Shown here piece after piece: positions 43,421 through 58,775 of a DNA stretch of 64,000 nucleotides; the first letter of the stretch is position 1; the number at the start of each line of letters is the position of its first letter. The notes below the pieces were generated by a model, which was given only the letters and a program-made list of their open reading frames with translations, was not told the DNA's origin and made no database searches. Location: assembly GCA_964248365.1 (NCBI GenBank), contig CAXTYC010000026.1, positions 1-64,000 of the forward strand, read 5' to 3'. Source of the stretch: an uncultured Chroococcidiopsis sp. Lineage in GTDB: Bacteria > Cyanobacteriota > Cyanobacteriia > Cyanobacteriales > Chroococcidiopsidaceae. The position numbers and the translations under genes are program-made.

Positions 43421-43494
43421 CGGGATGTAGCGCAGCTTGGTAGCGCACTTCGTTCGGGACGAAGGGGCCGCTGGTTCGAATCCAGTCATCCCGA
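43421..43494 (+). tRNA. trnP: tRNA-Pro (anticodon CGG)
   Basis: CGGGATG acceptor stem pairs with CATCCCG; anticodon arm CTTCG-TTCGGGA-CGAAG; T-loop GGTTCGAATCC. Confidence 0.97.
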
Positions 43495-43505
43495 TTGGTC
43501 TAAAA

Positions 43506-43575
43506 TGTCGATTATCAAATTATTTGTCTGCGATGACATATTGTTGTCCACAATTCAATTGTCAATTATCAGCGT
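43506..43575 (+). repeat. Transposon left end with three TnsB-site-like repeats
   Basis: TGTCGAT-TATCAAATTATTTGTC, TGACATATTGTTGTC and CCACAATTCAATTGTC, spaced ~16-21 bp apart. Confidence 0.72.
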
Positions 43576-43664
43576 TTATTGTTCATTGATAATTGATAAT
43601 TGTTCATTGATCGTTGATATGATAACTCCACCTTATTTATTTTGTAATTACTAAATCGGGGCAA

Positions 43665-43695
43665 TCCCGAAACATTGTGCGCCTTTCAACCCACC
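43665..43695 (-). CRISPR. Isolated truncated type V-K repeat plus degenerate tRNA-targeting (homing) spacer
   Basis: Minus strand GGTGGGTTGAAAG (43695-43683) is followed by GCGCACAATGTTTCGGGA. The tRNA at 43443-43459 reads GCGCACTTCGTTCGGGA, preceded by GTA. Confidence 0.75.
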
Positions 43696-44361
43696 TTTTT
43701 CTTCAAAAGCTTTTGCTTTTGGGGGCGGAGTGTTTATTACTCTCGATCTGGAAGGGTTGAGGAGCGCAGTGATAGAATATTACCTTGGGGTAGAGTTGAG
43801 CGACGAGGAGCAGCGCTTGCTGTAAAGCAGCTTCATGCGAAGGAATCACAGGCGTGCACTTCTTCGTGCGGTATCCCGACGCTTTATGTTGCAGTGGAAT
43901 GGAGGATCGCTTTCGCTTGAACTTGTAGAGTTTGATCTGGACAGGGCGATCGCATCTCTAGAACAAGGTCAGCCTGTGATTCTGTGTATGGCTAGATCGG
44001 ATTCATCAACGGATAGCAAGCAGATTTGTTGGGGTAGAGCGATCGCGCCACTACATTACGTTTCCCGCCTTGCTAAGACAAAATCCTTCTTTCTTTGCAT
44101 CTTTAAATCTAGGAGCAGATGAGTGATTTGTATTTCTAATACTGCGGTAGCAGTTTCTCTAGCTTACCGACAGGAGAGCTATAACACAATCACGAGTTTT
44201 TTTGGAGATAAGGAATATGTTCAAGCGCAAGTTGAAGCATAAAAACGCACAACAGGGAATAAAACCTTTAATGTCTTCATTAGACCTACAATTGCATTGA
44301 TTGAAAAGCCTGGTTGTTTTTTATAGTACAAATATACTAATTAGCTGTTAACTTAATTAGT

Positions 44362-45750
44362 GTGATTGCAGTGATTGACCTAAAGTATCATCCCTATGTT
44401 TATCTTTTTCCTTGCTTAAACAAACAGGAGTTTGAAGACCTCAAAAAAGACATAGTAGCTAATGGACAGGGAATCCCTATAACAGTCCTGGCAAGGACAA
44501 ACCTTATTCTAGATGGCAGGCACAGATACGAGATTTGCCGCGAGTTAGGTATCCAACCAAGAATTGAATATATTGCGCTAACCGCGTCGCAGATATTGTG
44601 GAAGGTGATTTCCCTCAATGTTAGAAGGCGACATTTAAGTGAGAGTCAAAGAGCAGCAATTGCAGCAAAAATCGCAAATATGCAACAAAGCGGAGACGGT
44701 AGCAATCAATATGCTGTTAAAAAATGTAAAGCAATGCAAATCTACACTTTTGCTAATTCAAAGGAAGTGCCTTTAAAAGAAGCCGCTGAAGCACTCAATG
44801 TAAGTAGGCGGACGGTAGCAAGTACGAGAACGACAATAAACTGTTTTCCTGAAGTTATAGAATATGTTATCAATGGCGATATTACTATTTTTGATGCCTA
44901 TAAGGTAAAAGACGAGTCACCTGAAATCAAACAGGAAGTTATCGCTCGGTTTTGCCGAGACAAAGGGGCAGGGCGCAGAACAAAAAGATTAGCTCAGTAT
45001 CGCAAAGAAATTAAACAGGAAATTGCCAAAAAATCCTTAGAGAAAGTGGTGAACAGCGTTTTAGGGATTGAGGTTGATGAAACCCCTCGTGTATCTTTTG
45101 GTGATGTTTGGCAATTAGGGCAGCACACGCTCACTTGCTGTGACTCCTCAAATTGGAATGCACCGCAAGCTAAGCTAGCTTTCGCAGACCCACCATACAA
45201 CGCAGGTATAGCTGATTGGGACACAGGGTTTGAGTGGAATCATGATTGGCTGATTGATAAAGCCGATACAGTGGTCGTTACACCAGGAGATGAATCTTTT
45301 GCTCATTTCTTGAGAAAAACCTCGATGCCCTACAAGTGCATGATTGCCCACTGGATTAAAAATGGTATGAGCAAAAGCCCAATGGGTTATGGCAATCACA
45401 TCATTGCTGCTGTATTTTGTAAAGAATCTACTCCTTATAAAGTAACAGGGAAGCGCAATCAAAACTACTCTGAAAGTATTATCAAAGCGATAGAAGCTGA
45501 TGACACCGACCATGCAGGTAGAAAACCACTGGATTTTATTGTGACCTGGATTGACAGATTAACCAATCCAGGGGAAGTGGTAATAAATCCATTTTTGGGG
45601 AGTGGAACCACTTTAATAGCTGCTGAACAGATTGGCAGGATTTGTCATGGTGCTGAAATCAATCCTGAATACTGTGGTTTTATTTTAGCGAGATGGATTA
45701 GTTTAGGAAAAGAAAATCCCAAAAAAATTAGAAGCCTAGTTGACGCTTAA
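44362..45750 (+). CDS. ParB-N/HTH domain fused to an N4/N6 DNA methyltransferase (beta-type motif order)
   Basis: ParB motifs ILDGRHRY and NVRRRHLSESQRA; HTH EAAEALNVSRRTV; MTase motifs ADPPY, HAGRKP, NPFLGSGTTL and GAEINPEYC. Confidence 0.9.
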   Translation: MIAVIDLKYHPYVYLFPCLNKQEFEDLKKDIVANGQGIPITVLARTNLILDGRHRYEICRELGIQPRIEYIALTASQILWKVISLNVRRRHLSESQRAAIAAKIANMQQSGDGSNQYAVKKCKAMQIYTFANSKEVPLKEAAEALNVSRRTVASTRTTINCFPEVIEYVINGDITIFDAYKVKDESPEIKQEVIARFCRDKGAGRRTKRLAQYRKEIKQEIAKKSLEKVVNSVLGIEVDETPRVSFGDVWQLGQHTLTCCDSSNWNAPQAKLAFADPPYNAGIADWDTGFEWNHDWLIDKADTVVVTPGDESFAHFLRKTSMPYKCMIAHWIKNGMSKSPMGYGNHIIAAVFCKESTPYKVTGKRNQNYSESIIKAIEADDTDHAGRKPLDFIVTWIDRLTNPGEVVINPFLGSGTTLIAAEQIGRICHGAEINPEYCGFILARWISLGKENPKKIRSLVDA

Positions 45751-45829
45751 AAAATTACGGTGCATCCTGGCATAAAACTATTATAAATCTGCGGCTCAAC
45801 TAATAGTTCTCAGCCTATCGCAGGAATGA

Positions 45830-46645
45830 GACTTAAAAGTTGAGAGCAAATCCTTTTGTCTACTTGAGGTTGAAATTCATGAAACAGTAAGATATGCTTG
45901 TGATTCAAATCATTGGGTCATGTATGATGGCAGCTTTACTTCACTAAATTGGGATTTATGTAAGTTTGCTGCATCTATGCCTGATGATTTGGATGGTTCA
46001 CTAGATGACCCAGATTTTTTAGAATGGGAATTAGTAAAAGATTGTTATCGCCGCTGTTTACTAAGTGTTGACTCTGATTGGTTCACAATTTTCGGTCAGC
46101 CTGATGTCAAAGGTGTTAATCGTCTAATTTCACTAAGTAAAAAGGGTAACAGCAAATACTATTCTCGAAAGCTGAAAGCACTAAGCGGTATTACAGACAA
46201 TGCTTTCCGTCCATCTGACAAGCTTATCTTGGGCTTGATTTTGCAGCCTGATGAATATACATCTCCTGTTTCTTACGAGCAACTTTTTGAAGACTCTCAT
46301 GGTTCAAAGGTTCCTGGCTATGGTAAGCCACACACAGGCAAGAATCACAACTTAGAAAAGCAGCACGATTCGGTAGAAGTAACTTTCAAGAATATGCGAA
46401 TCGTCAACTTTCGCCCTTGGGCTTGGTCGCCTGTAATGACGATTCATTATAACAAAACTGCTTGCAAGCTAGAAGAGGTTTTTGGAGTTGTCAAAGCTCA
46501 GACAAAAACCAGAAGTGTGATGAGCCAATGCCCTTATATCTTGCAGATTTGCTATCAAAACAAGCTTCAGCCGTTATTAAACTCTACGGCGAAATTAATG
46601 TTGGGCGTTATCCCAAACTCTTTAGAGCATTTCGTACTTCTGTAA
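45830..46645 (+). CDS. NurA-like nuclease, probably N-terminally truncated (first ATG at 45920; frame open from 45830)
   Basis: Motifs in NurA order: LLE...WVMYDGS, ISLSKK, SDKLILGLILQPDEYTSP and CPYIL. Lies 10 nt upstream of a HerA gene. Confidence 0.6.
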   Translation, partial: DLKVESKSFCLLEVEIHETVRYACDSNHWVMYDGSFTSLNWDLCKFAASMPDDLDGSLDDPDFLEWELVKDCYRRCLLSVDSDWFTIFGQPDVKGVNRLISLSKKGNSKYYSRKLKALSGITDNAFRPSDKLILGLILQPDEYTSPVSYEQLFEDSHGSKVPGYGKPHTGKNHNLEKQHDSVEVTFKNMRIVNFRPWAWSPVMTIHYNKTACKLEEVFGVVKAQTKTRSVMSQCPYILQICYQNKLQPLLNSTAKLMLGVIPNSLEHFVLL

Positions 46646-46655
46646 GGAAATAATC

Positions 46656-48287
46656 ATGATAACCGACCTAAAACAAGATTTTGTTGCCACAGTCAATTCT
46701 TATAAAAAGGGTAAGTTACACGTTACCATCCTTAACCGTGCTAAAAACCGCAGCATATCTGGCAAACTCTGCGAACTACTGATTAACTCCGACATAGGAA
46801 AACAGCGGGTTCTCTGCCGTATTAATCGTGTGGATATGACAAACGTTATCCACGAAAGTCTAGAGTTTCAGCAATTGCTTGCCGAGGATGGACATCTACC
46901 GTATTATTCGGGCGACTGCGATATTCTTAGTGCTGAAGTTGAGACAATAGCTTGCATAAGAGCTTCTGACTTAGTTTTTTCCGCAATAGCTTGTCCTCCC
47001 AAATCTGGTACACAGTTACGAGTTTTACATGATTGTGAAGTAGCTGATTACCAAGTCGAAAAAACTCATCAAGCAGTGATTGGACACTTACCTGATGAGT
47101 CAGCAATGCCAATGTCAGTAATTAACCGCCACTTTAGCGAATGGGATAATGGTGGTTACGGTGAGGCAAAACACACTTGTATTTTTGGTCAAAATGGTTC
47201 AGGAAAAACTGTTTTAGCCCTAGCGTTAATTGCTACTCAGCTTGCAGCTAATCCACAAAAAGGGTGCTTGATTCCAGATACTGCTGGAGATATTGCCAAA
47301 GGTGGCTCACATTCTAAGGGCGATTTTAAGTTCAACTTTATTGAGTTACTGGAAAGTGCAGGACGACATCCTGAATATATCGGTATTCAGGAAATCAGGT
47401 TAACTAGCAAAACCTCATTCAAGCAGCTACTTAACCCTGTCCTTAGAAAGGCTTTAAATATGCATGGGGAAAAGTCAGAGCAGCTTGCTGACAGGGTAAC
47501 AGAAGAGTTATTTGACCGACAAGTAGACCTGGCAGTTGCACAACCTAACCACATTCTTAACGCCGTCATTGACCGTATTGCCTCAATTTATACTGGTGCC
47601 AAGCGCAGGGAAAAAGAAACTGAGGCTGAAGAAATCAGGGATAATGCAGCTCAGAATCGCTCATTTGTCCGAGCTTACACTAGTGGTGTGATGAAGTACT
47701 TTGAGGGAAAATACAGCATTGACGAGATTGTTCAAGGCTTCCTAGATAACGGGCGCATAATCCTGCTTAATATGGCAACCATGTCTGAGTCAGAACAGCG
47801 ATATGTAATGTACGAAGTCTTTAGTAAAGTCAAACGTAAGGCAGAAGAAGATTTCAAACGTTATGGAACCACGCGCAATGGTTTAGTCGTCTTGGATGAG
47901 GGTCCACGATGGGCACCTCAAAGTGGTGATGATGAAGTTACCCAAGTAATTCGTGACGCTTTTAACACCACTCGTAAGCTTGGCGTGGGTTGGATGATAA
48001 TCTCCCAACGTATCACCGCGATTAGTAAGGATATTATTGCCCAGTGCCATACAAAATTTGTCGGTCGCGGTATGGGTATCGGTGCAGACCGCGATTACAT
48101 GAAAGAATTTTTCCGTGAGGATGGACTAGTCATGTACGACCAGTTAAGCCTAAGAGGCGGCTTCTACTGGCTTGTAACTGGGCATCAAGTCAACTACGGA
48201 CAGGGTTCTCAATATGTCGCATTTGAAACCTTTAGTGGTGATTCGACGCAAGCGATTAAAAACGCTAATCCCCATATTTGGGAATAG
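46656..48287 (+). CDS. HerA/FtsK-superfamily ATPase (DUF87-type)
   Basis: Walker A HTCIFGQNGSGKT, Walker B VVLDEG, and RKLGVGWMIISQR (Arg finger and Gln sensor); N-terminal beta-rich domain. Confidence 0.88.
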   Translation: MITDLKQDFVATVNSYKKGKLHVTILNRAKNRSISGKLCELLINSDIGKQRVLCRINRVDMTNVIHESLEFQQLLAEDGHLPYYSGDCDILSAEVETIACIRASDLVFSAIACPPKSGTQLRVLHDCEVADYQVEKTHQAVIGHLPDESAMPMSVINRHFSEWDNGGYGEAKHTCIFGQNGSGKTVLALALIATQLAANPQKGCLIPDTAGDIAKGGSHSKGDFKFNFIELLESAGRHPEYIGIQEIRLTSKTSFKQLLNPVLRKALNMHGEKSEQLADRVTEELFDRQVDLAVAQPNHILNAVIDRIASIYTGAKRREKETEAEEIRDNAAQNRSFVRAYTSGVMKYFEGKYSIDEIVQGFLDNGRIILLNMATMSESEQRYVMYEVFSKVKRKAEEDFKRYGTTRNGLVVLDEGPRWAPQSGDDEVTQVIRDAFNTTRKLGVGWMIISQRITAISKDIIAQCHTKFVGRGMGIGADRDYMKEFFREDGLVMYDQLSLRGGFYWLVTGHQVNYGQGSQYVAFETFSGDSTQAIKNANPHIWE

Positions 48288-48304
48288 ATGATTTCTAACC
48301 CAAC

Positions 48305-48340
48305 ACAAGCCCTTAAAACTTGTAAGGGCTTGTTTTTCTT
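48305..48340 (+). terminator. Intrinsic terminator after the HerA gene
   Basis: ACAAGCCCTTA / TAAGGGCTTGT stem followed by a T-rich run. Confidence 0.8.
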
Positions 48341-49208
48341 CTTCTAGTACTTGTAGCGCTTAAACCACTTTCTGCCACTTTATCATGTCCGCGAAGGGCA
48401 TAAAGCAACGCTAACATATTCCATCTACCCCTAAAGCTGGGATTTTAAACCTTGCTCCGCAGTTTAGGCATTTTGACAGCAGGCTTAACTGGTGGCGATC
48501 TTGCTACCATTACCTTAAACTACCACGATGCTCCGGTGATAAGATGCTTGGGCAAAACACAAGCTTCACACAAGCCAATAGGCTCTAGCTTTATGCCCAT
48601 ACCATCCGGCGGTAACATCTGGGCTAACCTATCTGCCCCTACTCCAACCACAACCGCTTTGCCCTAACTGCTGCCGAATAGGAGGACTAGCAGACGTTCT
48701 ACACTTGCTCAAAGTTAAAACTTGCCTCTTTTTCAGCACAAGGGGTTACGAAAAAGTTACGAAAAAGAGTCAGCCGTACCAAAGATCTATCGTTCCAACC
48801 CAAATACCTTGTGCATTTTGGTGCGCGACGTTTCGGGTAAGAGTACTCTTACAGATGCGCTCGCTTGGCTTTTTTGAGAATATTTGCAATAAGCCAGTAT
48901 CCCAAGCCAAGCGGGTTCGGCGGCAAGAGTATTCTTCCCGCCGACACCGCGCACCAAAATGCCTAGTCTGACCAATTTTGAGCAGGTTTCATGCAGGGGC
49001 GCGATCGCGTACGTTTGACTGGATGTGTATCCAGGCAAAGTATCGAGTGTCAAATTATTTGACCACTTGACATCTAAAACCTTGATCGAAAAGCTTGTCT
49101 CTTGATGAGGGCAAGGAATCCGATGTACCGACGGAAAACCCTGGAAATAAGCGATCGCACATCTTGAAAACTCAATTTTGTGCTAGTGTAGTAGAGATGA
49201 GAATAAAA

Positions 49209-49317: not shown

Positions 49318-49617
49318 ATGTCAATTTATGTAGGTAATCTATCCTACGAGGTCACACAAGAAGACCTCAACGCTGTTTTTGCAGAATATGGTTCTGTAAA
49401 AAGAGTTCAACTACCCACTGACCGCGAAACAGGTCGGATGCGTGGTTTTGGTTTTGTCGAAATGGGTACAGATGCTGAAGAAGAGGCTGCCATTGAAGCC
49501 CTTGATGGTGCTGAATGGATGGGTCGTAGTCTGAAAGTTAATAAGGCGAAGCCTCGTGAAGACAGGGGTTCGTCATATGGTGGTAATCGAAGAAACAACT
49601 TCTCTAGCCGCTACTAA
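49318..49617 (+). CDS. rbp: RRM RNA-binding protein
   Basis: RNP2 IYVGNL and RNP1 RGFGFVEM. Confidence 0.95.
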   Translation: MSIYVGNLSYEVTQEDLNAVFAEYGSVKRVQLPTDRETGRMRGFGFVEMGTDAEEEAAIEALDGAEWMGRSLKVNKAKPREDRGSSYGGNRRNNFSSRY

Positions 49618-53624: not shown

Positions 53625-56468
53625 CTAGTCGATATTTTGTGTCGCCCCGCTAATCGCATCCAACAAGAACAAACCCATATCTTTATGCAGTGCTTCATTA
53701 TGCTGCGGACACCTGGTTGAATGTAGACACCTTGGACAACCCGCTTCACAATCACATTCGGCTGCTAGGGCAATTGATGCCGCCGCAAATTTAGGTAAGT
53801 CATAGAAAATAGCTTCTGCTGCTCCATTACCACCTTCACAAGTGTCAAAAAAGTAGCCAATTGTTTTAGTCTGTTTTTGCGTTGTAACTATTGCGTCCAC
53901 ATCCAAACTAGAGGATAAAACTACCAAAGGTACAGCTTTTACTATCTGGTGCTGAATGCTGTGCAGTGCTATAAAATCAGCGCTGCTAGTCCACAATGAA
54001 AGATGAAGTTCTGGAATTTCACCACTTGTTGAGTTTATAAGTTCTTTCTTGTATTGGTTAGCTTGTACTTGCAGGGCTTTTTGTAGGGGTTCATTTATTT
54101 CCACTAGGAGGCAGGGTGCTTGGTATTTTGTCACGTAAGGCGGATCAAAAGCCACTTCTGACTGAAGCAAAGTCACTTCAGCGGTGGACAGAGGATGCTT
54201 GCACTTTTGACAAGTTTTTCCTTCAAGCGGTTTTTTATAGTTAGCGCAACGCTGGCTTTTACAAGTCATTCCATAGGCGCGTTTCATCAAACGATAACCT
54301 GTAACTGAATTAGTAATTTCTCCCCAAACCAGAGTTAATCTAACCCGTGCATCTTTGATGTTGGTAGGGACAATCTTGGATTGTGCCAATGTAGAAAGTG
54401 GTTGAATATCTAGTTCCGATTCGGCAGAGGTAAATAAATCTATATCTTTACCTAAAAACGTTAGTATTGCTTCTTGTTTCTCTTCGTTTAGGCTCTCGCT
54501 GCGGTAGGCGATTAACTCTCCGTTTTCATCTTGCACTGTATATATTGCCCCAGGAAATACCTCCCGATGGGCAAGCATAAGAGACATAGTTTCTAAGATT
54601 TCGCCCGTATGCTTGTCAATTAAGGAAATTGAAGTTTGAGTGCTGCTTCTAATATTAATCTCTCTGTGAGGATAACCCCTGCTCCAAAGTTTTCCGTTGC
54701 TCGTTATAAAAATTTTGTTTTGTTGTAAAAGAGAATCTGCAATTGCTAGGGCTGCTTTTCCAAAACGGGTATTGAGTTGATTTAAAGGCAGGCTACTTTC
54801 AACGCAACCGCATTCTAAATGTTTGCCTAGAATTGTTGGATAGTCAGGGTTAAAAGCAGCACGTTCAACTTCGCCGGACAGTAACTGTTCGGGATGCCGA
54901 GCGTAGAATACATCAATCGGGTTTTGTGCCAAGGGTAGATAAATCACAAGTCCGTGCTGTTTGCGTCCAGCTCTTCCCACTCGTTGCCAAAATGACATTA
55001 AGCTACCTGGAAATCCACGAAGCAAACAGCACTCTAGAGCAGGTAAATCAATTCCAGCTTCCAACGAAGAAGTAGAAATAATTACCTTGATTTGTCCGTC
55101 TAGCAGTTTTTGAATAATCTCGCGGCGGCGATCGCTCCTCAAGGAACTGTAAAACACCGCCACCTTGCTTGTTAAATAACCATTTCCTTGGCGTTGTGCT
55201 TCCCTTTGAATTAACCCCAGTAAACCTTTGACAGCAGCACGGGAATTACAAAAGACAATACCACTAAGGTTATGCTGCAACCAGGCTCCTACAATCTTAG
55301 CAGCTTCGACATTAGCTGCATTATTTGGAGCAAGGCATAATAAGGTACGCCCTGAACTAGGAGCGCCACTGCGCTCAATTAGGTGTAGTTTTTCAGGTTC
55401 GTTAGTTCTGCCACTAAACCTAAGCGCCATTTCTTGGGGATTGCCAATTGTGGCACTAGAGCAGATAAATTGCAGAGCGAGGGAATTACCGCCAACAGTA
55501 TCAACAGCTAGGCGCAGCCTCCGCATCAAATTAGCCACATGAGCGCCAAAAGCGCCAACATAAGTGTGTGATTCATCAATTACTACCCAGCGCAACTGTT
55601 TTAAAAACTGTCTCATTCCTTCTTGTGATTCTCGCTGCCGCACATTGTAAAGATAGTAATGCAACAAGTCGGGACTGACTGCTAATATGTTTGGAGGATT
55701 GGGAATAAACAAGCGTATTCGTTCTTCTTTGGGTGTATCACCCGTCATTAATGCGATTTTGAGGCAGTTGTTTGGCATCGCCTCCTTCAGCGATTGCAAC
55801 TTTCCCATTTGATCGAGGGCTAATGCTTTAAGTGGGAAAATATATAATGCCGTTGTTTGCGGTTGCTCGATACACGATTCTAGAATAGCGAGGTTGTAGC
55901 ACAGCGTCTTTCCACTTGCTGTCGGCGTGGTAATACTCAAGTCAAAACCAGCACGTAACTTTGTCAGTGCTTCTAGTTGGTGAGAAAAAATGCTGACGAT
56001 CCCGTTATTGTGCAACCCCAAACGCAAAGCCGGTGGTAAATCGTTGGGTATGGGGTAAACCATTCCTTGATTAGCATCTTTAATATCCACCGTCGTGATG
56101 GTTGCTATTAGTTCTTGAACTACAGACTGAAACGCCAAATGCGGGATTTGCCCAATGCGTTCGGAAATTGTTGCGGTTGCTGCACCCGTTTCTTCGAGCA
56201 ACGGTGTTGTGGAAGAAATTCTGTTGGCATTACTCGGTTTAATCGATCCACGCGCGATCGCTCTTTCCCAATCTCCAAATTGAGTTGGGTTGACTTCTTC
56301 AACAAACTTAGCAATTAACCGTCTGCCCAATATCCCCATTACTTCACCAACTCCATACTCTGGCGAGTAAATATGCTTACCCACACTCAACCATTCGGGA
56401 GGAGGGGGAACAGTAGAGTTGGCGGCACGGATAATTGCGGCGTAATCAGTTGGTTTGTTGTCAGTCAC
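53625..56468 (-). CDS. DEAD/DEAH-box SF2 helicase with C-terminal DUF1998 (Hrq1/MrfA-like)
   Basis: Motifs TPTASGKT, PLKALA, DESH, SAT, LEAGID and QRVGRAGR; C-terminal GGNG...CDCEAGCPRC. Confidence 0.92.
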   Translation of the reverse strand: MTDNKPTDYAAIIRAANSTVPPPPEWLSVGKHIYSPEYGVGEVMGILGRRLIAKFVEEVNPTQFGDWERAIARGSIKPSNANRISSTTPLLEETGAATATISERIGQIPHLAFQSVVQELIATITTVDIKDANQGMVYPIPNDLPPALRLGLHNNGIVSIFSHQLEALTKLRAGFDLSITTPTASGKTLCYNLAILESCIEQPQTTALYIFPLKALALDQMGKLQSLKEAMPNNCLKIALMTGDTPKEERIRLFIPNPPNILAVSPDLLHYYLYNVRQRESQEGMRQFLKQLRWVVIDESHTYVGAFGAHVANLMRRLRLAVDTVGGNSLALQFICSSATIGNPQEMALRFSGRTNEPEKLHLIERSGAPSSGRTLLCLAPNNAANVEAAKIVGAWLQHNLSGIVFCNSRAAVKGLLGLIQREAQRQGNGYLTSKVAVFYSSLRSDRRREIIQKLLDGQIKVIISTSSLEAGIDLPALECCLLRGFPGSLMSFWQRVGRAGRKQHGLVIYLPLAQNPIDVFYARHPEQLLSGEVERAAFNPDYPTILGKHLECGCVESSLPLNQLNTRFGKAALAIADSLLQQNKIFITSNGKLWSRGYPHREINIRSSTQTSISLIDKHTGEILETMSLMLAHREVFPGAIYTVQDENGELIAYRSESLNEEKQEAILTFLGKDIDLFTSAESELDIQPLSTLAQSKIVPTNIKDARVRLTLVWGEITNSVTGYRLMKRAYGMTCKSQRCANYKKPLEGKTCQKCKHPLSTAEVTLLQSEVAFDPPYVTKYQAPCLLVEINEPLQKALQVQANQYKKELINSTSGEIPELHLSLWTSSADFIALHSIQHQIVKAVPLVVLSSSLDVDAIVTTQKQTKTIGYFFDTCEGGNGAAEAIFYDLPKFAAASIALAAECDCEAGCPRCLHSTRCPQHNEALHKDMGLFLLDAISGATQNID

Positions 56469-56968: not shown

Positions 56969-58775
56969 TTATTGGCAATGGTAAAGCTCATACTTAAAAC
57001 CATTTGTCTTAAATCTGCGTTGGGAATCTACAACACAGTTTTGGGTATCTTTCTCTAATTTGGCTACGGCGCGGGTAAAATTCACTATCCATAAATCAAA
57101 TGGTCGTGGTAGCCCAGCCAGGGTTTTTGTAAGTGCAATTGTAGAGTTATTAGATAATGGTTCTTGATCAGCTAAGAGAAATCAAGGGTAATTTTTTGCA
57201 GCATTTACTACCCAATTATAAGGATAAAAAAGACGTTTAAACTCATAACCCAACGCCATCATTTCTCTTGTTTGTGCATGAGTTTTGTGAGCAGTAGCAA
57301 TTAGGACTGTATTGTGAGAAGTATTTTGAATAATCGGAACTAAAAGATCTGCTCGTTCAATCTTTTGATAGCCAAAATTGTAAACTACAGTCAAAGCACC
57401 AAGAAAACCCAACAACCAACTTAGTATTACTACTTTTTTACCCTTTGCTTGGAGAAAATGTAACAGAGATTGTTGGCAAGTAGACCATCCTAAATCCATC
57501 CTAGCTGCCAAATTAGTAGCATCCCAACAGATAGCAAATGCGGCTGCGATTACAACTATAAAAGCTGGAAAATAACTGAAGTGATAACGAGCAGCGATGG
57601 ATAAATCAGCACCGAGAGTATAAGTGATACCAAGAAAAAGCGCGATCGCTACCAAAACATATCCACCTAATACAAGAGTTTCTAGGCGAGGTAGCGATCG
57701 CACAAGCCCAATTCGCCAGCCAGAAATTAAGCTTGCTAGTGTCCAGAACAGAAAAATCAGCACCAAAGCACCACAAGCGATCTCAATCGGTGAACTTACT
57801 TCCTCGACGGGCAATAACCACAGCATAGTAATAATCCAAGCCAAGAATCTAGCGATCGTTTCCAGGCTGTTCTGGAAACGATTTCCATTAAAAATCCACT
57901 GCGTCATCTGATTATCTGGAATACTCCGCCAAGCAGGTAGCCAAACCAAGCCCCCCACCAAAGTACCCGCAGCCACTGCATAGAGTCGCCATAAATATGG
58001 GTGAGGGGAAGCTGGGGGAGCTGGGGAAGCAAAAAGAAAATTTGTCTGTTTGCGCCTTTGCGTCTTTGCGTGACCAAAATCCAATTAAAACCAAAGCTTC
58101 GGCACACAGAGTAAGGGCGAAGAAGTAGTGAACAGCAATTCCCAAAGTGTTAACCACCACCCAAGTTAATCCTACCCATATCGGCAGGCTCGTTCGACGA
58201 TGGATAGTCCGCGTGGCTATTATCAAGCAAGACAAGGAAGCGATAATTAACAAAATCGCCAAAGTGTAATGACGGGGTTCTTGAGCTTGATAGATGCCAT
58301 AGGGCGACACCGCCATCGTTGCTGCTGCGATTTGAGCAACTAATCGAGAGCGAAAAGCTAGCCAGCCTAAGCCAAAGATAGCTGGAATTGATACTACCCC
58401 CAAAATAGCACTAAGCGATCGCGCGGCACACAATGAAGCTAATCCATATTCTGTCGGAAATAGCCCCATCCACAGGTGATTCAGCATAAAGTAGACTGGG
58501 GGATGGGTACTCTCAGTCATTAAATTGTGAAAAACTGCACCGAGATCTTTCTGCAAACGAGGTTGCAGCGGCATCAAGAGCGTATCTAGGGCGATCGCCT
58601 GATCGAGTGGTACGCTACTAAAACTATTTCCCAAGCTAAAAACCAGAGTGGCAAATTCATCTGACCAAGGTGATTTTGCCGTTAAATTGGTAAAACGCAA
58701 GGTAGCACCGATCGCTATCCACACCCCTAGCAGTGCAAAATGAAACCAGCCTGTATGGACGATCGCCTTTAACAA
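56969..58775 (-). pseudogene. GT39/PMT-like membrane glycosyltransferase with a frameshift and a premature stop
   Basis: Motifs WSDEF, ESTHPPVYF and QEPRHY. The frame changes in the repeat tract at 58004-58075. After the in-frame TGA at 57184-57182 it continues FLLAD...LPRPFDLWIVNF...YELYHCQ*. Confidence 0.85.

Follow-up and report, generated by a model that had tools for sequence, protein, structure and literature searches.

The cassette and its nuclease gene

The stretch of Chroococcidiopsis DNA analysed here (the window, 64,000 nucleotides) belongs to contig C26 of a 5.58-Mb assembly that is 99.97% complete, and its host is a cyanobacterium. Positions 44362 to 48340 hold a three-gene cassette consisting of a DNA methylase fused to ParB and helix-turn-helix (HTH) domains, a NurA-family nuclease gene, and a HerA-family ATPase. 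The window copy appears to be a recently inactivated cassette left as cargo of a dead type V-K CRISPR-associated transposon (CAST), while intact copies elsewhere probably form a modification-gated defence; a probability of about 55% is assigned to this combined reading.

The methylase gene lies at 44362..45750, the nuclease pseudogene at 45887..46653, and the ATPase gene at 46656..48287, all on the plus strand. Between a tRNA-Pro(CGG) gene (43421-43494) and the rbp gene at 49318 there is no other open reading frame (ORF) of at least 120 residues, in agreement with the sequence-only reading, an earlier annotation of this DNA, which regarded three co-oriented genes as the only substantial ones in the element. 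The G+C content of the cassette is 41.4%, compared to 43.4% for the genome. A shared terminator had also been proposed. A hairpin of 11 bp with a T-run, resembling an intrinsic terminator by consensus match only, is indeed present after herA (48305..48343, plus strand), but such sites are no commoner than chance, with five seen and 4.5 expected. An Rfam scan of the window found the tRNA as its sole match.

The methylase has 462 residues in an intact frame and is predicted to be a beta-class amino-methyltransferase. It matches Pfam N6_N4_Mtase (E 9e-15) and HTH_23, and a profile of 26 relatives matches M.MboIIA (E 1.6e-19), and also CcrM and N4-cytosine enzymes (E 5e-11), so that both N6-adenine and N4-cytosine enzymes are among its matches. 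ParB/Spo0J/Noc chains of solved structure are matched by the profile as well, in the region of residues 18-184 and with an E value of 5e-7 at best. The DPPY motif (276-279) precedes the S-adenosylmethionine (SAM)-binding motif FLGSG (411-415), which is the beta order. The ParB, HTH, DPPY and FxGSG motifs listed in the earlier annotation are thus all found. In the ParB part, all 26 of the 26 methylase rows share D51, G52, R53, R55, N86, and R89, and presumably these residues represent the CTP-binding boxes of ParB. Position 409, beside the SAM-binding motif, is Asn in the window alone and Asp in the 25 other aligned rows (a private D409N change). Private substitutions affect four of 150 columns, which is indistinguishable from the relatives (zero to seven). 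GenBank phages give no methylase match at 1e-15, and plasmid matches cover the ParB-HTH part only.

The ATPase (543 residues) retains an intact frame and all of the motifs expected of the HerA/FtsK group. The Walker A (G181, G183, K184) and Walker B (D414, E415) residues, R440, and Q451 are invariant across 14 aligned relatives, as the sequence-only reading had predicted, and the arginine finger, the conserved Gln, and a putative N-terminal beta-rich domain are present. The Pfam DUF87 score is at the cut-off, and the protein falls far under every NCBIfam cut-off. Its profile matches a large number of HerA chains, all weakly, among them archaeal HerA (E 4.5e-11), three anti-phage HerA chains (between E 6e-15 and 4e-11), and, over residues 361-477 only, TdpA (E 1.2e-9). 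The best PADLOC match is mad8 (E 7e-18), together with a generic mad2 match. Private substitutions are found at three of 286 columns and at zero to 12 in the relatives, so the window protein is again indistinguishable from them. The start of herA is two nucleotides past the ancestral nurA stop in the window, as in intact loci.

The middle gene belongs to a family that, by its structure model, is NurA with an RNase H-like fold. Nuclease homologues number 20 among 181 candidates, 19 of them non-self; 15 of the 19 have 379-386 residues, and the four of 243-319 residues come from contigs no longer than 5.3 kb. Searching 1.84 billion representatives with a profile yielded 73 matches. Among the 34 scanned with Pfam, 18 distant relatives match Pfam NurA at E<=0.01, ten of them above the cut-off, and none of six close relatives does. 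The structure model of an intact relative, P0004, has a predicted local distance difference test score (pLDDT) of 92. The top ten Foldseek rows for this model are all NurA (E 7e-11), and the Z scores are 21.2 (2ygk) and 16.7 for NurA, 11.9 for TdpB (8wet_G), and 11.8 for Deinococcus NurA. The RNase H fold is therefore present in the model of the intact family. In an alignment of 59 family members D69, D142, K213, and D348 are found in all 59 and E125 in 57. The first Asp of NurA is essential (D49A) according to the accessible text of PMC12977600, and this together with the invariance suggests that D69, E125, D142, and D348 have catalytic roles.

The 59 family members yield a single weak PADLOC match (PDC-M22A, E 0.004), and the 241-residue ORF annotated in the window has none from Pfam, PADLOC, or NCBIfam, and only unnamed Atlas clusters below 0.9; PADLOC has no model for the nuclease. 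A close nuclease is present in none of 65 viral stretches and in no plasmid searched. The host has a separate NurA, unrelated to the cassette, at C34:6714-7679 (a 447-residue open frame, Pfam E 6.5e-42).

The window copy of nurA carries two lesions. When full-length relatives are compared to the window by tblastn, the match begins at about residue 129 at position 45887 with 73% identity, and at 46522 it jumps to another frame, with a 93% match over the final 43 residues. The pseudogene thus encodes residues ~129-339 in one frame and 340-382 in another, following the loss of one base at 46521. Residues 1-128 have no tblastn match anywhere in the window or genome, and on this search the idea that the N-terminal third is kept in a different frame, or at a different place in the genome, was rejected. 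Behind the methylase, the DNA can be aligned as far as 45886 with the spacer between methylase and nurA in two relatives (L017/L020), and from 45888 onwards with nurA itself. At this junction (45886..45888) the spacer is fused directly to nurA codon ~129, and the alignment indicates that a deletion removed the remaining spacer, the nurA start, and 128 codons.

Contigs from four of the 20 listed runs were compared with the window. In run X1 the contigs of a 96-99% identical relative span the tRNA end, the methylase, and herA. One X1 contig, with three differences in 294 bases, departs from the window at 45888 and continues for 163 further bases, and a contig of run X3 likewise departs at the nurA junction (departure points 45888-45890 over X1 and X3). 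Contigs of runs X3 and X18 have one extra base at 46521. Since these relatives lack the deletion or have the extra base, both lesions are specific to the lineage of the window. Both are probably recent, as the remnant still has a ratio of nonsynonymous to synonymous substitution (dN/dS) of 0.11 versus L017.

The 241-residue ORF (45920..46645, plus strand) is best read from these alignments as a remnant of the pseudogene, its last 41 residues being the off-frame tail. It lacks the first three RNase H core strands (E65-76, E80-91, and E99-108 in the P0004 model), and of the acidic residues it retains only D142; D69 and E125 are deleted and D348 is out of frame, the frameshift having cost the ORF its C-terminal motif. 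The deletion by itself is enough to kill the nuclease, and the window copy is almost certainly nuclease-dead. Thus the sequence-only reading identified the right family for the middle ORF, while the product it described is truncated and frameshifted, and its proposal that this copy acts in defence does not hold. Because nurA is broken, a phage challenge with the window copy would give a false negative, and experiments on the annotated ORF would be testing a pseudogene. For the window genome the practical message is a negative one, namely that the cassette is disarmed.

Conservation, distribution and partner genes

The same three genes recur together in other cyanobacteria. Seven close loci were obtained: L001 and L002 (from 80 stretches), L017 to L020 (from 86), and L047. 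The ParB-methylase is directly upstream of nurA in all seven, and herA is directly downstream in six, L020 stopping inside nurA. The co-occurrence of the methylase with NurA-HerA, on which the earlier proposal of a cassette depended, is thereby supported. Five of the close loci are whole and undamaged. In L047 the methylase is stopped at codon 420 and nurA is broken where it starts; counting the window, two of the eight close copies are broken. In Scytonema sp. UIC 10036 the cassette corresponds to the consecutive tags F7734_41155/41160/41165. The nurA-herA gap is two nucleotides in the four intact loci measured and in the window. All three genes are under purifying selection, with dN/dS of 0.07-0.20 in comparisons among L001, L002, and L018, although dS is saturated in most comparisons with the window.

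The distribution and settings of the cassette suggest that it is a rare, mobile three-gene unit of cyanobacteria. No close copy is found in 400 other genomes of the class and one is found in 400 genomes of the phylum, while the ATPase has no match in 27 of 27 other genomes of the family. L002 and L018 are associated with a triple-recombinase element having two integrases and DUF6262, L001 (Nostoc sp. PCC 9305) has plain chromosomal neighbours, and the distant locus L015 is adjacent to Tn7-type genes. In Nostoc sp. P12578 (L002:3570-15237) the intact cassette and the two-integrase/DUF6262 element lie between the halves of an apparent recQ-type helicase gene.

A HerA tree of 20 rows, from which the near copies L014, L019, L161, and L162 and partial loci were excluded, separates two groups with different partner genes. 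The clade of the window (support 100/99) has 11 rows, and a PF01555 methylase gene is adjacent in all 11. This partner is of the ParB type in six rows; L015 and L050 have an upstream type of 357-359 residues, in L159 and L160, which are viral contigs, it is downstream, and in L016 it is convergent. In the methylases of L050, L159, and L160 DPPY comes after the SAM motif, and there is next to no similarity to the window methylase. The L050 and L160 enzymes are similar to one another (E 1e-20). It appears from these sequences that the methylase partner of HerA-NurA has been swapped, not lost, within the clade. In the prophage-like viral contigs L159, L160, and L161 nurA-herA is followed by a SAM-motif-first methylase, which is the gene order of ICETh1 of Thermus thermophilus.

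The sister clade has nine rows, and seven of them have DruA/DUF4338. Of the exceptions, L012 is cut by a contig end and L167 shows no DruA. DUF4338 is a GNAT domain according to the available text of PMC10853773, and the Atlas lead for DruA is GNAT-phage-like, with a weak score of 0.83. The resulting NurA-HerA-DruA(DUF4338) cassette is seen in L011, L048, L049, L013, L014, and L163-L165. L011 and L048 also adjoin a V-K left end and a cvkR remnant, while L163 and L165 come after type III restriction-modification genes. At L065:1384-3018 an ORF joins the first half of HerA to DruA, beside a NurA fragment and a transposon end, and is probably a deletion product.

A decayed type V-K CAST as carrier

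The features on both sides of the cassette identify its carrier as the remnant of a dead type V-K CAST. The tRNA-Pro(CGG) gene on the plus strand is the target of the transposon, with a GTA protospacer adjacent motif (PAM) at 43440-43442. A left end (43506..43555, plus strand) begins with TGT 63 nucleotides after the PAM and aligns with the ends of the cas12k-bearing loci L052, L037/L054, L056, and L021 at scores of 46-58, compared to shuffled maxima of 22-35. Next to it, at 43665..43695 on the minus strand, an alignment identifies a truncated repeat and a degenerate anchor spacer aimed at the tRNA-Pro protospacer; this region is 90% identical over 104 nucleotides to its counterpart in the CAST locus L037/L054.

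Two CAST genes persist as pseudogenes. A cvkR pseudogene (MerR-type CAST repressor, 43723..44033, plus strand) has lost its 5' part and is frameshifted, matching by tblastn in three frames the MerR-type ORFs beside cas12k in L051, L052, L054, L056, and L057 (best E 1e-17). On the other side of the cassette, at 48363..48633 on the minus strand, a frameshifted tniQ pseudogene retains residues 78-171 (tblastn E 1.5e-22), matching the ORF that follows two transposase ORFs in L054. The cas12k, tracrRNA, array, tnsB, and tnsC are gone from the element. No intact cas12k occurs in the genome: C22 carries only fragments of it, and the tniQ found on C19 scores under the cut-off. Decay of the whole element fits with the broken nurA.

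The right side of the element is less clear. A hairpin repeat of 259 nucleotides resembling a miniature inverted-repeat transposable element (48742..49000, 59-nucleotide inverted arms, folding z -5.9) is inserted where tnsC/tnsB were. It is unrelated to the cassette, and has a 95% copy on C7 (116888-117147) and pieces on C52, C17, and C28. Following it, a transposon-end-like 32-mer (49041..49072) matches the ends of L054 and L065 (scores 40 and 51; shuffled maxima 24 and 33). It aligns better outwards than inwards, leaving the orientation ambiguous, and is probably a remnant of the right end. An identical 7-mer flanks the left end (43499-43505) and this sequence (49073-49079). The target duplication of Tn7-like elements is 5 bp, shorter than the 7-mer. 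None of six genomes of the same genus showed tRNA-Pro and rbp joined as an empty site. Two further candidates were rejected: 48787-49053 is not a tnsB remnant, as it lies within the hairpin repeat and has no tnsB match, and the repeats at 43555-43619 are not transposase sites, as they belong to a genome-wide short repeat.

The element resembles the type V-K CAST layout, as described in the accessible part of PMC9938897, in its tRNA target, GTN PAM, left end 63 nucleotides off, truncated repeat with anchor spacer, cvkR, cargo, and tniQ. It differs in being non-autonomous, without intact cas12k, tracrRNA, array, tnsB, tnsC, or tniQ. The suggestion that the cassette is CAST cargo is thus supported by the left end, the anchor spacer, and the two pseudogenes.

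Other CAST remnants were encountered in this genome and in one of the same family. C22:1-4900 (L021) is a second decayed V-K CAST with cas12k fragments, three repeats, and type I restriction-modification cargo in pieces, and C19:1-2069 (L025) has tnsB/tniQ remnants. In the same-family genome a CAST remnant with tniQ and cvkR pieces (L055, G418:C1) adjoins the other side of the rbp-microcompartment-pentapeptide block. Outside the element, the window encodes on the minus strand a DEAD-box helicase of 947 residues with an MrfA Zn-binding domain (53625-56468, Hrq1/MrfA-like).

Possible function and relation to known systems

The intact unit is somewhat more likely than not to be a modification-gated nuclease like TdpABC. 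The work of An et al. in 2025 is said to describe TdpABC as a phosphorothioate restriction-modification system of thermophiles that degrades unmodified phage DNA and spares modified DNA. In the cassette, the methylase would mark a short motif in host DNA (N6-adenine or N4-cytosine), and its ParB-HTH part would help it to load and slide or would regulate the operon. A HerA hexamer would pump double-stranded DNA into a NurA dimer, and both strands would be shredded. Marked DNA would be poorly loaded or processed, so unmarked phage or plasmid DNA would be destroyed. The restriction-modification logic would be that of TdpABC, with a methyl group on a base in place of sulfur in the backbone. In the window genome the nuclease would have been lost first, disarming the cassette and leaving the methylase and motor to decay. 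Archaeal HerA-NurA needs ATP, cuts both strands, and leaves no overhangs, according to the portion of PMC12977600 available. The domain content, conserved order, purifying selection, patchy spread, mobility, swapped modifiers, and two nurA lesions are observed, while marking, discrimination, defence, and any ParB clamp role are inferred for intact copies.

Several points weigh against this reading. Neither NurA nor HerA shows an evident sequence- or methyl-reading domain, which makes discrimination the weak step. Three other anti-phage HerA chains are at least as close to the HerA profile as TdpA is, and archaeal repair NurA (Z 21.2 and 16.7) is nearer to the nuclease model than TdpB (11.9). 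ICETh1 has an operon of similar type whose role is DNA donation, and transfer is only slightly affected when its methylase is lost, so a methylase of this kind does not have to act as a protective mark. The tree holds two label changes only, so that 11 of 11 and seven of nine are not independent counts, and the tool warns of long branches meeting. The seven close loci amount to about five independent ones, L001/L019 and L017/L020 being apparent near copies. Nuclease-first loss is seen in the window only, as both the methylase and nurA are broken in L047. Finally, the frameshift at 46521, taken alone, could be an assembly error. A second gene in the window also appears frameshifted: at 57182-58775 on the minus strand, overlapping ORFs of 287 and 300 residues without a Pfam match look like one membrane protein split in this way.

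The alternative that survives best, although it is unlikely, is that the intact cassette degrades foreign DNA from free ends as RecBCD does, blind to methylation, with the ParB-HTH-methylase serving only to regulate the operon or to protect the mobile element against restriction enzymes of the host. HerA-NurA acts on both strands at DNA ends, and defence by end destruction is discussed in the accessible sections of PMC12977600. Related methylases are common alone on viral contigs, with NurA or HerA within up to 6 kb in none of the 80 best viral loci, and the ICETh1 methylase is nearly dispensable. One would not expect a passenger methylase, however, to accompany 11 of 11 ATPases in the clade, or to be replaced by another type instead of being lost.

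A rather less likely explanation is a DNA-donation module like that of ICETh1, in which the ATPase would export chromosomal DNA to competent neighbours and NurA would trim it. The nurA-like gene (377 residues), tdtA (568), and PF01555 methylase (410) of ICETh1 are on one transcript beside a tRNA, and the proteins here have comparable sizes (381, 544, and 460 residues). However, ICETh1 also needs a type IIG enzyme, and the ORF lists show none beside L001, L002, L017, L018, L019, or L047; the cassette also rides in elements with their own mobility genes. It is improbable that the cassette is primarily a selfish addiction module, in which the nuclease-motor kills cells that lose the element as the methyl mark dilutes, with defence as a side effect. 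Its rare and patchy occurrence in several mobile elements and the two broken copies among eight look as if hosts escape a costly element, but the module needs the same marking mechanism as the modification-gated nuclease, and the difference is one of emphasis.

An accessory module for double-strand-break repair in desiccation- or ultraviolet-stressed cyanobacteria is very unlikely. Archaeal repair NurA gives the best fold matches and the runs compared include urban and surface metagenomes, but the host has its separate NurA, close loci lack mre11 and rad50, the methylase has no place in resection, and almost none of the searched relatives carries the cassette. Least likely of all is that the window copy is functional, its 241-residue product being a real short nuclease or its lesions assembly errors: the database proteins P0008 and P0009 begin at the same Met and the other window gene appears frameshifted, but these proteins, from contigs of 1.9 and 2.6 kb, retain the C-terminal motif, the deletion takes the first RNase H core strands with D69/E125, a 97-99% identical relative keeps additional sequence at the junction, and two separate lesions are required.

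If intact copies do restrict unmethylated DNA, as the modification-gated reading proposes, a compact three-gene type would be added to the restriction-modification systems. They would also allow a direct test of how a HerA-NurA motor without recognition spares self DNA, and of the role of ParB domains on methylases. Intact cassettes could be a barrier to transforming some cyanobacteria. A broader and doubtful idea is that HerA-NurA serves generally as a restriction motor whose partners for marking self can be exchanged, including the sulfur chemistry of TdpABC, two unrelated methylases, and the GNAT-like DruA. In the cyanobacterial branch a CTP-dependent ParB clamp might spread the methylase and the recognition-less nuclease might read the mark or the clamp, and the intact Nostoc and Scytonema copies might then be an unnamed class of ATP-driven restriction-modification.

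The sequence-only reading did not recognize the combination as a named system. This stands for the ParB-methylase form, and no paper describing a ParB-methylase-NurA-HerA system was found by full-text literature searches, although the supplements of PMC10853773 and PMC12839542 may list the neighbourhood; "NurA" is absent from the main text of both, their supplements being outside the search. The core is less new than was stated, as it is shared with ICETh1 and TdpABC.

Among known systems the cassette is most like TdpABC and the ICETh1 operon, and it belongs to neither, having no tdpC and no type IIG gene. TdpABC (PDB 8wet, 8wfd) is a one-gene modifier with TdpAB, as cited in the available text of PMC12914056 and PMC13223576. 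The cassette likewise has one modifier gene, a HerA-type ATPase (TdpA E 1.2e-9), and a NurA-fold nuclease (8wet_G, Z 11.9), but its modifier is a SAM-dependent amino-methylase with ParB-HTH, of PF01555 in seven of seven close loci, instead of the sulfur-inserting TdpC, and its ATPase and nuclease show no special closeness to TdpA or TdpB. ICETh1 of T. thermophilus HB27 co-transcribes a type IIG enzyme, a nurA-like gene, tdtA, and a PF01555 methylase; DNA donation requires nurA and tdtA, and methylase loss has minor effects (accessible parts of PMC5365140 and PMC7767461). In both, a nurA-like gene immediately precedes a HerA-type ATPase, the operon includes a PF01555 methylase, and a mobile element lies at a tRNA. 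ICETh1 differs in its type IIG enzyme, integrase, and downstream methylase, and the parts of these papers available report no ParB-HTH fusion. A type IIG restriction enzyme ORF is found beside none of L001, L002, L017-L019, L047, and the window, some of these contigs being short.

The other HerA systems are further away. Archaeal and Deinococcus HerA-NurA (2ygk, 3tai, 9x1l, 7f6d) share the nuclease fold, the acidic active-site pattern, and nurA-herA adjacency, but at 9-13% identity, and the cassette is without mre11/rad50, mobile, rare, and linked to a methylase. Sir2-HerA and DUF4297-HerA also have a HerA motor with an upstream effector and give weak profile matches. The effector here is NurA, the scores are 25.6 and 14.3 bits versus NCBIfam cut-offs of 850 and 800, and those systems have no methylase. 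MADS is an operon of eight genes (mad1-8), while the cassette has only three, with the mad8 and generic mad2 matches. Overall it appears that the cassette is a real, conserved, and unnamed variant of the modifier, HerA, and NurA combination, and that it is dead in the window genome.

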